Below the pieces are notes generated by a model that was not told where the DNA came from, made no database searches, and saw only the letters and a list, made by a program, of their open reading frames with translations. 64,000 nucleotides of DNA from a virus (Duplodnaviria; Caudoviricetes): the IMG/VR virus record IMGVR_UViG_3300028596_000001; one strand, given 5' to 3'. This document shows, in pieces, positions 2,334 through 21,614 of this stretch. The position numbers and the translations under genes were made by a program. Every line of letters begins with the position of its first letter. Position 1 is the first letter of the stretch.

Positions 2334-3890
2334 TTAACCATTAACTTGTTTTATGAGAGCCATGTATTCGTTCTTGATTTCGTTTTCCACTTCAATCGAG
2401 AACAAATCGCCTGCCGTGACTCGGTCATAAATCTCCGGATCGTCCAGCACCCCGTATTCGAGGTTGGACCGCCAAACGCCATTCCCGAATTGGGAAAGGA
2501 AACTATCAGCTGCTAACAATGCTTCATTATAACCTCGGTTCTCGCTATTGCGGGACTGTACGTCGCAAATGGAGGCAAGGTAGTTCTTGTCTTCATCGCT
2601 AAGCTTAAGCCCTTCCGCCAAGCTCCGGGTACCATTAGGATCATGGATTGCACCCAGAACAGATGGAAGATACTTATAACCTTGTTCACTCAGTTTAACT
2701 TGAGCGAGAGCGATGGCCGCCATGAACTGGGTATAGTTGCATGCTTCCCAGATAAATGCCGAAACTACTTCGAAGTAGGTCAGCTCCAGGATACGCACGA
2801 TGTGGTTGTGCATGTCGAAGTCCCAGTTGATCGGGAGGTTGTCGTAAACCTTCTCCACCAACTTTTCATTCTTGATGCCCAACGCAATGCACTGATACTT
2901 GAAACGATCTTTGAAACGTGGTGCGTCGGTTTCATCGAACAGACCGAAGCTGAAGAACTCTGCTTCGGATTCCTGGTCGGAGGATTTAACTTCCTCGGTG
3001 ATCCCGTACTTGTCATAGTTGGAGCGTTTGTCTTCCTCGTCCGCTCCCGGCCGATCTTCTTTTGGTTTGAAGATCGTGCTGGTCTCATGCTGCTTGACCG
3101 CACCGTTGATACTGTTAGCGATGTTCTTGTCGTGTTCCGTTTCCGGAATGACTGCACAGCACAGACGATCGAAGATTGCACTGAACAGTACTTTCTCGAT
3201 AAACGTCTCGCTGCTACCACCGCCATCGATCTGAGTTGGGATACCGCGCTTGTCAAACGAGAAGCGGAAGTAAGTGTTAAGCTTCTCCCAACCATACAGC
3301 CGAGTTATGTACGGATTATTCTTGATCAGCTCGCCGCAAACTACTTCACGGTAGCCGGAGCCCATGGTCTGATCGAAACGATTCAACAGACCGAAGATGA
3401 TCGGATAAACAGTACGTACTACAAATGCCAACTTCACCAGGTTGACGTAGTCGTTGTCCGTTACTGTAGTTTGTTCTGGATAGTCCCCTTTGCTGGCTGC
3501 TTCGCTCAGGTTCTTGGGGATCTTCAGATATTCCGAGTTCTGGATGAACGCGCAATACTTGTCGACGTTTACCAGTTCGAGGATGTCATCGACTATTGGC
3601 CGTAACTGATTGATCTCAGTGTTATAGTCGTAGAACTTCCCGCTCTCGACAATGCTGTGCGCTTTGTCATAGAGATGGAACAACTTGATCTTTTGTTCGG
3701 TAGTGAATACCGAATCAACATAGTCGTTGAAGCAACTGAAGAGATTGTTCTCTTCTTCAGACTTGTCACGAATTACTTTTTCCAGCTGGACCTTAGCCCG
3801 GCCATTGAACAGGATCAACTGGTCGTTAAGGGATACTTCGATCGCCTTAATGCCTTTCTTACCAGTCCTTCGAATATTAATCAAGAACAT
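2334..3890 (-). CDS. Non-virion RNA polymerase specificity (sigma-like) subunit, phiKZ gp68-like, 518 aa
   Basis: Size close to phiKZ gp68, position between the ChmC-like and PicA-like genes, and an upstream early-promoter-like motif at 3921-3938. Confidence 0.65.
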   Translation of the reverse strand: MFLINIRRTGKKGIKAIEVSLNDQLILFNGRAKVQLEKVIRDKSEEENNLFSCFNDYVDSVFTTEQKIKLFHLYDKAHSIVESGKFYDYNTEINQLRPIVDDILELVNVDKYCAFIQNSEYLKIPKNLSEAASKGDYPEQTTVTDNDYVNLVKLAFVVRTVYPIIFGLLNRFDQTMGSGYREVVCGELIKNNPYITRLYGWEKLNTYFRFSFDKRGIPTQIDGGGSSETFIEKVLFSAIFDRLCCAVIPETEHDKNIANSINGAVKQHETSTIFKPKEDRPGADEEDKRSNYDKYGITEEVKSSDQESEAEFFSFGLFDETDAPRFKDRFKYQCIALGIKNEKLVEKVYDNLPINWDFDMHNHIVRILELTYFEVVSAFIWEACNYTQFMAAIALAQVKLSEQGYKYLPSVLGAIHDPNGTRSLAEGLKLSDEDKNYLASICDVQSRNSENRGYNEALLAADSFLSQFGNGVWRSNLEYGVLDDPEIYDRVTAGDLFSIEVENEIKNEYMALIKQVNG

Positions 3891-4869: not shown

Positions 4870-5667
4870 TTAAAGCATCAACATCAAACCTGCTCGTTCC
4901 ACCCCTTGAGGAAGAGATGAAATCGAAGAACGTACCCGGGACATTGTCGAAGCGCTAGTCCAATGACTTTCTTCGGCTATTCGCTTCACCACTTCACGTA
5001 TACCAGCAATGGATGATTTGAAGTTAGTCGAGTTATCTCCAAACACCTGGATGGTCAAACGGTTCAGCGGCATGTTGTACAGGTTCTTTCCGCCAGTGAG
5101 TTTCGTATTCCAATCTGGGTAGAGTTTGAGCACCCCCGTATAAGACTCTAAAAGTTTCAACCGAGCTACGCCGTTGGTTTCACACAGATCCACAGGATGG
5201 TGTGTCAATACAATGCCATTGCCGCTAAAGACAGGCATACCAACATCGGTCTTAACAATCAACTTCTCATACTTCTTGAAAACGATCTCACAGGTCTTAA
5301 CAATTGTTTCTTCTAGCTTCTGTTGCTTTTCAGTACCCTTGGTGTGGTCTTTGATATCCGCCTTAGGGTACTTGCTCTTCAAGCCTTTATACGTTGGGTA
5401 GTACACCACCATCTTTACCGGTTTACCGTTGCGATGGGTTTCGATGTACTTAGCCAAGAAGGTGATGTCTCCTTCCACATCCTTGGCTAACGCCGTAGCG
5501 TTGTACTGCTCACTGTCTTCCTTGTCGTAGCTATCGATAGCGTTCCGTACCAGCGTGCGCAGGTTAAACAGAAGACTGTCGGTATTGGCCAAACTACTAA
5601 TAGCACCGCCCTCAAGGGCCATGGAGGTGCCTACCGAAATCCCTAATCCACCGGTTGAGCGGCTCAT
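4870..5667 (-). CDS. Conserved core hypothetical protein (possible nuclease-like fold), 265 aa
   Basis: Clean ORF overlapping the stop of the SbcD-like gene by 4 nt; no decisive motif. Confidence 0.6.
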   Translation of the reverse strand: MSRSTGGLGISVGTSMALEGGAISSLANTDSLLFNLRTLVRNAIDSYDKEDSEQYNATALAKDVEGDITFLAKYIETHRNGKPVKMVVYYPTYKGLKSKYPKADIKDHTKGTEKQQKLEETIVKTCEIVFKKYEKLIVKTDVGMPVFSGNGIVLTHHPVDLCETNGVARLKLLESYTGVLKLYPDWNTKLTGGKNLYNMPLNRLTIQVFGDNSTNFKSSIAGIREVVKRIAEESHWTSASTMSRVRSSISSLPQGVERAGLMLML

Positions 5668-20130: not shown

Positions 20131-20227
20131 TATAACATGTTTCCATAGTTGCAAAAAAATAAAGAATAGGCCCCACCCAATACTCCTAGACCAACTGTCA
20201 ATGACGGCTGGGATCAGAGTATTAGAT

Positions 20228-20373
20228 GAGGGGAGGTTTTCAGTGGCTGCCCTTACGGGGTCGCCCAACCAGTGCAACGAGGCAGACGAAAATACTGGTT
20301 GTTGCTTAAGGACCTCCTAACCTAAGCTGGAGCAGCGCAGCAGGTCGAAGATAAAGCAAGGATGGCATCCCCT
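20228..20373 (-). ncRNA. Unidentified structured RNA, about 146 nt
   Basis: GAGGGGA/TCCCCTC ends, GGAGGT/ACCTCC, CAACCAGT/ACTGGTTG and a CCC-GTAA-GGG GNRA hairpin on the minus strand. Confidence 0.5.
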
Positions 20374-20476
20374 CAAAGTCATACTGCCGGCCAGGCTGCC
20401 TGAACTAAACGAGAGGATACCTGATGAACAAGCAATGGGGTGTGCTTATTCACCTACACGGCCGCTAGACCATGTT

Positions 20477-20565
20477 TGGAGGGGAGCTGGTCGGACTCGA
20501 ACCGACGACCTATGGGTGAGGGACTAGTATCACCCACCGCGCTAACCAACTGCGCTACAACTCCC
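20477..20565 (-). ncRNA. tRNA-like RNA with an enlarged anticodon arm (no assignable anticodon)
   Basis: GGGAGTT/AGCTCCC acceptor, D arm AGCGCAGTTGGTTAGCGC, T arm GTCGG-TTCGAGT-CCGAC and encoded CCA, but the anticodon arm is GTGGGTGA-TACTAGTCCC-TCACCCAT (26 nt instead of 17). Confidence 0.8.
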
Positions 20566-20570
20566 ACATT

Positions 20571-20646
20571 TGGCTCCGTAACCAGGACTCGAACCTGGGA
20601 CCCACGCATTAACAGTGCGTTGCTCTACCGACTGAGCTATCACGGA
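20571..20646 (-). tRNA. trnN: tRNA-Asn (GTT)
   Basis: Canonical 76-nt cloverleaf TCCGTGA...TTACGGA-G-CCA; anticodon loop CT-GTT-AA. Confidence 0.97.
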
Positions 20647-20655
20647 AGAAATCTT

Positions 20656-20780
20656 GACGGTCCAATTCGGACTTTTACCGCACTTACACAAGAGCTTGCG
20701 GCTCAAGGGAGCCCGACCGTCCGGGCGCCGAGTGCTTTCTTTACCTACCAGGGTTCCTTGATCAATGGTCCTTTGTAAGT
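20656..20780 (-). ncRNA. Pseudoknotted structured RNA between tRNA-Trp and tRNA-Asn
   Basis: ACTTACA/TGTAAGT, nested TCAAGGGA(G)CCC/GGGTTCCTTGA, and a crossing GACGGTC/GACCGTC helix. Confidence 0.5.
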
Positions 20781-20785
20781 TAATG

Positions 20786-20861
20786 TGGCAGTCCAGTCAG
20801 GAGTCGAACCTGAAACCTACGGCTTTGGAGGCCGTTGCTCTGCCAGTTGAGCTACTGAACC
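20786..20861 (-). tRNA. trnW: tRNA-Trp (CCA)
   Basis: Canonical cloverleaf GGTTCAG...CTGGACT-G-CCA; anticodon arm ACGGC-CTCCAAA-GCCGT. Confidence 0.97.
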
Positions 20862-20942
20862 AAATAGGTCCTTCCCGGGAGGGAAGGAAGGGTGCAACCG
20901 GGTTTCCTGCTTCAGTGTATATTTCTTTACAAACCTTTTAGC

Positions 20943-21027
20943 TGGGGGAGGTGGATTTCGGACCCTACCACCATTTCACACGGTACTAGAAAATTCCCGT
21001 GTGGAGTTTAAGCTTAACTTACCCCCC
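20943..21027 (-). ncRNA. Degenerate cloverleaf (tRNA-like) RNA ending in CCA
   Basis: GGGGGGT/ACCTCCC 7-bp acceptor followed by CCA, a GTT/AAC mini D arm, CACACGG/CCGTGTG stem with a 13-nt loop, and a T-loop-like GGG-TCCGAAA-TCC. Confidence 0.55.
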
Positions 21028-21034
21028 GTTTACA

Positions 21035-21135
21035 CTGACGCGATTGCGGCGAGCCGACCTGACCGTCGGCTAATACCAGGATAAAGATCCCGGTTCGTTG
21101 CGGCTGTAGGAAGCCGTTGAGAAACCTACAGTCGG
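21035..21135 (-). ncRNA. Multi-hairpin structured module
   Basis: AGCCGAC/GTCGGCT, GGAT/ATCC and GGCTGTAGG/CCTACAGTC stems filling the space between two tRNA-like RNAs. Confidence 0.4.
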
Positions 21136-21142
21136 AACAAGA

Positions 21143-21282
21143 CAGAGAGTGCACGATTCGAACGTGCGGACCCACATCCCGTAAGTTGCAGATAATGGGT
21201 ACATCCGGTTTCTACGCCCCAACCACGCCGTGGCTAGGTTAAGCGTACCACCAGACTCCTTAAACCACTCGGACAACTCTCT
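21143..21282 (-). ncRNA. tRNA-Ser-type scaffold with a long hairpin inserted in the anticodon loop and an extended variable arm (140 nt)
   Basis: AGAGAGT/ACTCTCT acceptor plus G discriminator, Ser-type D arm TCCGAGTGGTTTAAGGA, T arm GCACG-TTCGAAT-CGTGC, anticodon stem TCTGG/CCGGA enclosing 42 nt; no encoded CCA. Confidence 0.8.
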
Positions 21283-21288
21283 AGAATA

Positions 21289-21365
21289 TGGCGCGACCAG
21301 AGGGACTCGAACCCTCGACCATCCGCGTGACAGGCGGATATTCTAACCGGCTGAACTATGGCCGC
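21289..21365 (-). tRNA. trnD: tRNA-Asp (GTC)
   Basis: Canonical 77-nt cloverleaf GCGGCCA...TGGTCGC-G-CCA; anticodon loop CT-GTC-AC. Confidence 0.97.
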
Positions 21366-21413
21366 GAAAAACTGCTTTGTTACATATGATACAAACACCG
21401 AGTAAAAAGTTAA

Positions 21414-21614
21414 GGAGGGGTGGATTCGGATTGTTACACCCTAGCCCGTCCCCTCCTGTCCTCTGGATCACGTAAACGAGGTGCACCTCCGATACGTGTA
21501 AAGAGCCGCCTCAATAAGCTTGTTAGGATCCGGGCCTGCATCCTTGGGAGGACGGAGGGGCGGAAACGAGCAAGGGTAAGCTTATCGTGACTAAGGGCGT
21601 TTGACATGGCCCCC
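21414..21614 (-). ncRNA. Unidentified long-stem structured RNA, about 200 nt
   Basis: About 16-bp helix CCG(T)CCCCTCC(T)GTCCTC / GAGGACGGAGGGGCGG; 5' G-run; 3' motif TCCGAATCCACCCCTCC shared with the 20943-21027 element. Confidence 0.5.

Follow-up and report, generated by a model that had tools for sequence, protein, structure and literature searches.

A conserved tRNA-Ser-shaped RNA gene with a hairpin in place of the anticodon loop in uncultured phiKZ-like phages, possibly a non-decoding mimic of tRNA-Ser

In the transfer RNA (tRNA) array of an uncultured phiKZ-like jumbo phage, studied here through a 64,000-nucleotide stretch of DNA (IMG/VR record IMGVR_UViG_3300028596_000001; hereafter the window), lies a gene with the body of a serine tRNA in which a long hairpin takes the place of the anticodon loop. 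Judged by comparison with homologous sequences, this element is confirmed as a real, conserved and unusual phage gene, and no report of it was found in the open literature that we searched. The reading that we favour, with a probability of about 0.5, is that the product is an unspliced, non-decoding derivative or mimic of tRNA-Ser(UGA) that would act by its shape. The element had originally been predicted as a tRNA-Ser interrupted by a hairpin of 35 nucleotides (nt), with two suggested explanations, a protein-spliced mini-intron and a mimic that could be charged by seryl-tRNA synthetase (SerRS).

The anatomy that the original prediction had parsed on the minus strand matches the sequence exactly (Table 1), and the cloverleaf is the minimum-energy fold of 142 nt (-55.7 kcal/mol, z = -2.7), as good a fold being reached by 3/200 shuffled sequences. 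Outside the anticodon loop, the element is a perfect class II (serine-type) tRNA frame, with an acceptor stem AGAGAGT/ACTCTCT of 7 base pairs (bp) without mismatch and with U8 between the acceptor stem and the D arm. The canonical tRNA parts that were tested and found present are the 7-bp acceptor stem, a D arm with G18 and G19, a 5-bp anticodon stem and a T arm with a TTCRA loop. What is missing is a loop of 7 nt that has U33 and an anticodon that could be read; in all variants 38-42 nt lie between the strands of the anticodon stem. In the window the 5-bp stem encloses 42 nt where 7 are normal (T, 35 nt and T-AGA-AA), and the GAAA on the 3' side of the junction would equal positions 35-38 of a serine anticodon loop. 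The hairpin of the variable arm, 31 nt in the window, also exceeds that of ordinary class II tRNAs. As predicted, the insert folds as a hairpin, but the proposed register of approximately 11 bp did not hold: the predicted pairing of the anticodon arm consists of helices of 5 bp and 9 bp and a bulge of 4 nt, and the arm of the window folded alone gives one extended hairpin (-26.1 kcal/mol, z = -3.8, 1/200 shuffles).

Relatives were recovered by pattern scans of IMG/VR and of Joint Genome Institute (JGI) metagenomes and by a locus search based on the phage tubulin PhuZ. They comprise six sequence variants from five lineages of uncultured phiKZ-like soil phages: A (the window), B and B' (L010, L119 and L122), E (L120), C (L002 and L124) and D (L117). 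The PhuZ proteins of lineages B and C are 73% and 61% identical to that of the window. Because homologues of five lineages have the same architecture, the element is far beyond chance. In the six-sequence alignment every one of the 120 cells in the four cloverleaf helices is a standard pair, and five pairs have changed on both sides, four of them in the T stem and one in the anticodon stem, where pair 27-43 goes from U-A to G-C in lineages C and D. None of 500 shuffles reached the covariation score, and slid controls pair in 28-53% of cases. Between the same genomes the tRNA core is nearly identical while the flanking intergenic DNA is mostly unalignable, and the full pairing and covariation next to such flanks therefore show purifying selection on the gene at the level of the folded RNA.

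The insert is 31-35 nt long and sits at the same site in every copy, flanked by invariant GG and GAAA. Its interior differs among the lineages, and its position and hairpin character are retained: B and E have the basal stem in common and not the apex, C and D the 3' strand and not the remainder. The arm is a single irregular extended hairpin in all six variants, with a 7-nt loop in none. A symmetric purine-rich loop, with GGAU opposite UGAA, is one way to draw the junction of B, C, D and E, and that of the window has GG opposite GAA and then a U-A pair. An idea that Watson-Crick covariation (T..A versus A..T) links the nucleotide following GG to the one preceding GAAA was withdrawn, since the register is ambiguous and four of the lineages are better drawn with the symmetric loop; readings of the junction as a K-turn or as a sarcin-ricin/loop-E motif did not fit the consensus when compared by eye. 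The variable arm also differs in size, with 31-40 nt in four lineages versus approximately 10 nt in C, and its apices turn over fast.

The original prediction had pointed to related phages as a source of copies without the insert or with covarying inserts. Inserts of divergent sequence at the same site were found, but an insert-free form was not. None was present in IMG/VR under a pattern requiring just the 3' half and the acceptor stem, the pattern of the element family gave 0 matches in genome contigs, and a search of genome contigs for an insert-free tRNA-Ser with the same D and anticodon arms gave one chance match, in a Fimbriimonadaceae metagenome-assembled genome, which is not a tRNA. 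The contigs of four runs contained just fragments and joints of tRNAs of other organisms (20-30 nt per side, 80% likeness) and no informative insert-free form. Among the INPHARED phages the 140-nt element alone has no match, and the 1.45-kilobase (kb) array matches through its canonical tRNAs only; in this comparison no close relative of the phage was found among cultured phages. Within the window the insert has no second copy and is not a repeat.

Standard annotation overlooks or mis-calls the element. The Rfam tRNA model RF00005 does not match it even at E <= 10, and ARAGORN, with intron mode on or off, does not call the proposed fold and offers only a mismatched alternative, a 92-nt tRNA-Gly(CCC) at 21141-21232. 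The ARAGORN output itself speaks for this glycine tRNA, which is nevertheless almost certainly an artefact: the acceptor stem of the model has the mismatches C.C and C.U, its D stem of 3 bp is made from the insert, Rfam has no tRNA match at that place, and the 140-nt fold has a perfect acceptor stem that is conserved with covariation in five lineages. The comparative data thus refute the glycine reading.

The serine assignment of the tRNA body is supported by sequence features. The serine-type D arm noted in the original prediction is an exact 20-nt word typical of phage tRNA-Ser: it occurs in more than 112 viral contigs, and at its sites ARAGORN calls Ser(GGA) 49 times, Ser(TGA) 44 times and Leu(TAA) 16 times, some of the last being neighbouring genes. 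With canonical class II tRNA-Ser (UGA/GGA; RF00005) the element has in common the acceptor stem with G2-C71 and A3-U70, the pair G30-C40, the D-arm 20-mer (approximately 100 phage genes), the variable arm's base, the T arm and the elbow nucleotides. It differs from the canonical molecule in having 38-42 nt for the 7-nt loop, a variable arm of up to 40 nt, A-U or G.U instead of G-C at 1-72 and a discriminator that is not fixed.

The features by which SerRS chiefly recognises tRNA-Ser are its variable arm and tertiary core (PMC9976931; PMC7609411), and G2-C71, G30-C40 and the long variable arm, all present in the element, are identity elements of tRNA-Ser (PMC9976931). G1-C72 is absolutely conserved in most bacterial tRNA-Ser and G73 is a determinant in vivo (PMC9976931); here the former is absent and the latter varies. 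Five variants have A-U at position 1-72 and the sixth has G.U. The discriminator, counted as a serine mark in the original prediction, is G in two of the five lineages (the window and D) and A in the other three (B with B', E and C). CCA is encoded by the B/E clade only; the canonical neighbours of the element in the array, tRNA-Asp, tRNA-Trp and tRNA-Asn, each encode it. As the discriminator varies and CCA is missing, charging by SerRS is less certain than had been assumed, and the element is a putative substrate for serylation. This relaxation of the marks of a decoder, seen across the aligned variants, argues against an ordinary decoding tRNA and for a mimic.

One alternative is that the element is an intron-bearing tRNA-Ser, in which the 31-35 nt hairpin is a mini-intron between positions 32/33 and 34, to be removed by an endonuclease and a ligase of the host or the phage so that a decoding tRNA-Ser(UGA) results (AGA in the window). 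The insert behaves as introns do, with the same site in five lineages, conserved junction nucleotides and a freely evolving interior, and no detail of the tRNA body has been lost, G30-C40 and the compensatory swap in the anticodon stem among them. Excision gives an ideal serine loop, T-T-TGA-A-A, in C and D and a formally acceptable 7-nt loop, T-T-AGA-A-A, in the window, where the product would be approximately 105 nt with the junction TCTGG-T/T-AGAAACCGGA. An intron would also agree with the lack of an insert-free copy for decoding, the complete relative G001 having no tRNA-Ser other than this one and tRNA matches inside the array only.

However, the details of the junction do not suit splicing, and we consider an intron-bearing tRNA-Ser unlikely. 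The absence of a textbook bulge-helix-bulge, already remarked in the original prediction, was borne out by an exhaustive scan of each arm: the window, B and E lack the motif (two 3-nt bulges with a 4-bp helix between them) at the junction, and the sole drawing that resembles it, in C and D, depends on three G.U pairs and leaves the nonsense loop U-G-GAU-U-A. Excision had been proposed to restore tRNA-Ser(AGA), which is not supported as a functional reading: the four other lineages read TGA there, and in the window the A of AGA, which would be A34, is the closing base pair of the hairpin; A34 is rare in bacterial tRNA-Ser. The proposed repair of the serine loop also breaks down in B, B' and E, where the same excision gives A-A-TGA-A-A with A33 in place of the near-universal U33. 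Neither the endonuclease EndA (PF01974) nor RtcB (PF01139) or Rnl2 (PF09414) was found in two CheckV-complete relatives, with positive controls; in the search for Rnl1 (PF09511) the control had no signal anywhere. Splicing could not remove the equally large, lineage-specific expansions of the variable arm and leaves them unexplained, the discriminator varies, and a phage of an outgroup, L258, has no tRNA-Ser at all. Protein-dependent tRNA splicing is not known from bacteria or their phages. Between the two explanations of the original prediction, the mimic thus fits better, and the protein-spliced mini-intron is left without its motif and without an endonuclease or ligase family in the complete relatives. 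A group I intron was excluded by the size of the insert (31-35 nt, compared with more than 200 nt for a self-splicing intron with a P1-P9 core) and by the lack of a match to any Rfam intron.

A mini-intron of a new type, made by a nucleus-forming jumbo phage of bacteria, appears more doubtful still. The conserved GG...GAAA, in place of a bulge-helix-bulge, would mark the insert of a pre-tRNA-Ser for excision, after which the two halves would be joined again. The enzymes, so far unrecognised as splicing factors, could be a host RtcB together with an anticodon-loop nuclease, or phage proteins, and the tRNA would be active only after the splicing step.

We therefore return to the non-decoding mimic, which is favoured by the extended hairpin without a 7-nt loop, by the invariant GG and GAAA and by the failed reading of an anticodon. 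We infer the following steps for it. The RNA would be derived from a class II tRNA-Ser(UGA) whose 7-nt loop was replaced by a continuation of the anticodon helix, through a purine-rich internal loop (GG opposite GAAA) and then an irregular hairpin of approximately 10-14 bp of freely changing sequence. It would be transcribed together with the tRNA array upstream of phuZ and released like a tRNA by host RNase P and 3' trimming, and the host would add CCA where it is not encoded; neither a CCA-adding enzyme nor a class II aminoacyl-tRNA synthetase core was found in the complete relatives. The RNA would then fold into the normal L-shaped body with an intact elbow, a long variable arm and a rod-like anticodon arm, stay unspliced and be unable to pair with a codon. 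Such a mimic would occupy, or serve, a protein for which the body and the variable arm, and not the anticodon, are the marks of tRNA-Ser, candidates being SerRS or host tRNA-targeting toxins that select tRNA-Ser by the long variable arm. For MenT3, a nucleotidyltransferase of the DUF1814/AbiEii family, the long variable loop is the feature that singles out tRNA-Ser, whose CCA end the toxin then blocks (PMC11162799). As both SerRS and MenT3 read the body of tRNA-Ser, a copy consisting of the body only could be charged for non-ribosomal use or could soak up such an enzyme. The expansion of the variable arm, being beyond the reach of splicing, suggests that the molecule can bear additions as long as they project outwards from the tRNA core.

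Several observations weigh against the mimic. The GAAA of the junction, and TGA in four lineages, is the exact 3' part of the loop of tRNA-Ser(UGA), and the perfect loop obtained in C and D by removing 34-35 nt is intron-like. The stability of the hairpin is above that of shuffled sequences in A, C and D (z = -2.4 to -3.8), but in B, B' and E it is thermodynamically unremarkable (z = -0.4 to -1.1), so a stable rod is not clearly what selection keeps. The covariation statistics are thin, coming from five lineages only, and every run holding the locus is a DNA metagenome. The decoy targets are our inference from the literature and not from the locus, and the host may supply enzymes, RtcB for example, beyond those searched.

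It is also conceivable, although we think it improbable, that the element is a relic of a tRNA, kept as a processing signal for RNase P or RNase Z in the array transcript or slowly decaying as a pseudogene. Decoding would then have been lost by insertion, and cleavage at the acceptor stem, T arm and elbow would free the neighbouring RNAs or the phuZ message. Such a role would suit the position of the element in a dense array of tRNAs and structured RNAs without open reading frames (ORFs), the relaxed discriminator and CCA, the fast drift of the apices of both extra hairpins and the unremarkable hairpin stability in B and E. The composition of the array is also reshuffled, Asp giving way to Leu(TAA) upstream in B and E, and L258 lacks the element. 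Against this stand the compensatory change in the anticodon stem and the pairing, which in a neutral pseudogene would not remain at 100% while the flanks become unalignable.

An explanation at the level of DNA, in which the RNA is irrelevant, seems very improbable. It would take the insert as a palindromic insertion that spoils the target of a homing endonuclease or another nuclease (an immunity copy), or as a mobile mini-element. Homing endonucleases do occur in phage tRNA clusters, for example segB of T4, but no nuclease family was found among the ORFs neighbouring the array, the insert is single in the window and there is no intact tRNA-Ser partner copy. The inserts, moreover, differ in sequence and yet have an identical site and conserved junctions.

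Phage tRNA genes are usually read as helpers in codon usage or as substitutes for tRNAs cut by host defences. A serine tRNA without the part that reads the code, kept across a diverged nucleus-forming clade, points instead to a function of the tRNA body, for example as a decoy, an adaptor or a processing handle. As tRNA-Ser is known by its shape to SerRS and to toxins of the AbiE/MenT type, a copy of the shape only would be an obvious candidate for use in counter-defence. If it is spliced after all, the element would represent the first case in the bacterial world of a tRNA intron whose removal depends on protein.

The closest known counterparts in kind are the stable RNAs species 1 and 2 of phage T4 (rnaC and rnaD), which are, like the element, small non-coding RNAs inside a phage tRNA cluster. 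In rnaC there are a tRNA-type T arm (CCGGG-UUCGAAU-CCCGG), paired 5' and 3' ends and long extra hairpins, but no recognisable D arm or anticodon stem, whereas the element keeps every part of a class II tRNA-Ser, with the altered loop and the long variable arm as its only departures. There is no sequence relationship between them, and the likeness is of kind only. The hosts also differ, as do the phage families (Straboviridae for T4, a phiKZ-like jumbo phage for the window). No function is known for rnaC and rnaD. By analogy, these tRNA-like RNAs, together with two other array members of the window that also have abnormal anticodon arms, may count as a precedent for a mimic.

The introns of archaeal and eukaryal pre-tRNAs, in which the EndA-type splicing endonuclease acts on a bulge-helix-bulge, are likewise short structured inserts in the anticodon loop with a variable interior and conserved boundaries. 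In contrast to them, the insert of the element is not at 37/38, has no bulge-helix-bulge and gives no sensible product in two lineages; the lack of EndA and RtcB in the complete relatives sets it apart as well, and the host is presumably bacterial. The intervening sequences of bacterial 23S ribosomal RNA are, like the insert, lineage-variable hairpin extensions at the tip of a conserved helix. These are excised by RNase III without re-ligation. They belong to a different RNA, and no sign of cleavage was seen in the element.

YrlA/Y RNA and the tRNA-like domain of transfer-messenger RNA (tmRNA) combine, as the element does, a non-decoding, tRNA-like acceptor, T arm and elbow with a long helix. 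Unlike the element, YrlA has its RNA ends at the side of the helix and works with Ro/Rsr; the YrlA model RF02553 does not match the element, and TROVE (PF05731) is absent from the complete relatives. tmRNA differs in having no D stem and in carrying a tag ORF, and ARAGORN found no credible tmRNA at the element. A tRNA-Sec or allo-tRNA was rejected, as these need acceptor/T-stem configurations of 8/5, 8/4 or 9/3 (for allo-tRNA, Mukai et al. 2017, PMC5389517) and the element has 7/5.

The positions of all parts of the element are collected in Table 1.

Table 1. Parts of the tRNA-Ser-shaped element in the window and the observations on each
Feature	Position	Strand	Observations
Whole tRNA-Ser-shaped RNA gene	21143..21282	-	140 nt including discriminator; sequence, cloverleaf fold, homologues, alignment
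Acceptor stem, 5' strand AGAGAGT	21276..21282	-	Pairs with 21144-21150; 7/7 pairs retained in 6/6 variants; pair 1-72 (A-U or G.U) alone varies
D arm, 3-bp stem and Ser-type loop with G18 G19	21257..21273	-	One loop base varies, rest invariant
Anticodon stem, 5' strand TCTGG	21251..21255	-	Pairs with 21204-21208
Junction, 5' side, T then invariant GG	21248..21250	-	G34 and G35 invariant in six-sequence alignment
Inserted hairpin, UACGC/GCGUA base, 4-nt bulge, 9-bp upper stem, GGC apex	21213..21247	-	Folds
35-nt insert as delimited in the original prediction	21215-21249	-	Sequence reading
Junction, 3' side, invariant GAAA	21209..21212	-	G71, A72, A73 and A74 invariant in alignment
Anticodon stem, 3' strand CCGGA	21204..21208	-	100% of cells paired across variants
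Over-long variable region, TGT, 31-nt hairpin and CC	21168..21203	-	Fold; TGT...CC base invariant
T arm GCACG-TTCGAAT-CGTGC	21151..21167	-	4/5 pairs changed on both sides across variants, all cells paired
Acceptor stem, 3' strand ACTCTCT	21144..21150	-	Sequence and pairing across variants
Discriminator G, then TCT	21143..21143	-	No CCA encoded

The window belongs to a phiKZ-like (nucleus-forming) jumbo phage with a guanine plus cytosine content of approximately 50%, and PhuZ tubulin and a divergent family B DNA polymerase are encoded near the array. DNA of the locus was present in 12 runs, mostly from soil and also from wastewater. The element lies in the ORF-free array upstream of phuZ together with the canonical tRNA-Asp, tRNA-Trp and tRNA-Asn. 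In the more distant complete phage L258 (PhuZ identity 57%) the array is kept, a plain hairpin stands at the position of the element and a canonical tRNA-Tyr lies upstream of this hairpin. Among close relatives the array is reshuffled and the Ser-like gene is retained; the upstream slot held by tRNA-Asp in the window is taken in B and E (L119/L120) by a canonical tRNA-Leu(TAA).

One of the two other array members with abnormal anticodon arms is a tRNA at 20481-20564 (minus strand) with canonical acceptor, D and T arms, in which an 8-bp stem with a 10-nt loop replaces the anticodon arm. Rfam gives it 55 bits with a 15-nt insertion, and ARAGORN reads it as Ile(gat), or as Gly(ccc) with a 7-nt intron. 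Its homologues, also with an odd anticodon arm, stand just before phuZ in L002 (5395-5480) and L258 (6496-6570). Immediately after the last odd tRNA and ahead of phuZ, the word CATGGTCTAGCGGCCGTG was found in all three lineages for which the region is available (window 20455-20480, minus strand; L002:5485-5500; L258:6575-6595).

The best-conserved non-tRNA part of the array is a module of approximately 130 nt between tRNA-Trp and tRNA-Asn (20656-20785, minus strand), which has no match in Rfam. It is near-identical in A, B and E and can still be made out in C, D and L258, with counterparts at L002:4940-5060 and L258:5910-6050, and it holds a GGTAAAAGTCCG-like word that is found again elsewhere in the arrays. 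Ahead of the first gene in a tRNA block of the relatives there is a promoter-like word, CCCGATTT(C/A)CTATGTTATAC (L010 at approximately 3855-3880, L002 at approximately 3765-3790 and L258 at approximately 5065-5090); B has the Ser-like gene after this word, C has tRNA-Asp and L258 has tRNA-Tyr. In the window a related ATATGTAAC word stands upstream of tRNA-Asp (approximately 21385-21395).

The tetranucleotide CTAG is strongly depleted in the window, with 87 sites observed versus 250 expected (0.35 of expectation). Seven sites fall within 1.26 kb (20186-21441), covering the RNA array and the DNA just downstream, and several lie inside the apices of odd tRNA arms or close to them. In the element, CTAG occurs in the apices of the window, B and E and is absent from those of C and D.

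Class II tRNA frames of 104-129 nt with paired acceptor ends and aberrant middles were also seen in other viral contigs (L132/L137, L138, L127, L136, L141, L130/L133/L139, L131/L128, L140/L143, L134, L129 and L135). The one in L132/L137 has a normal loop with a TTA anticodon, of the ochre-suppressor type, and a variable arm of approximately 36 nt. Among cultured jumbo phages, Erwinia phage vB_EamM_Asesino has an annotated 121-nt 'tRNA-Ile(aat)' (KX397364.2, 4378-4498; L251:1673-1793) with approximately 45 additional nt separating the D arm from the T arm, which is a possible analogue that could be approached experimentally.

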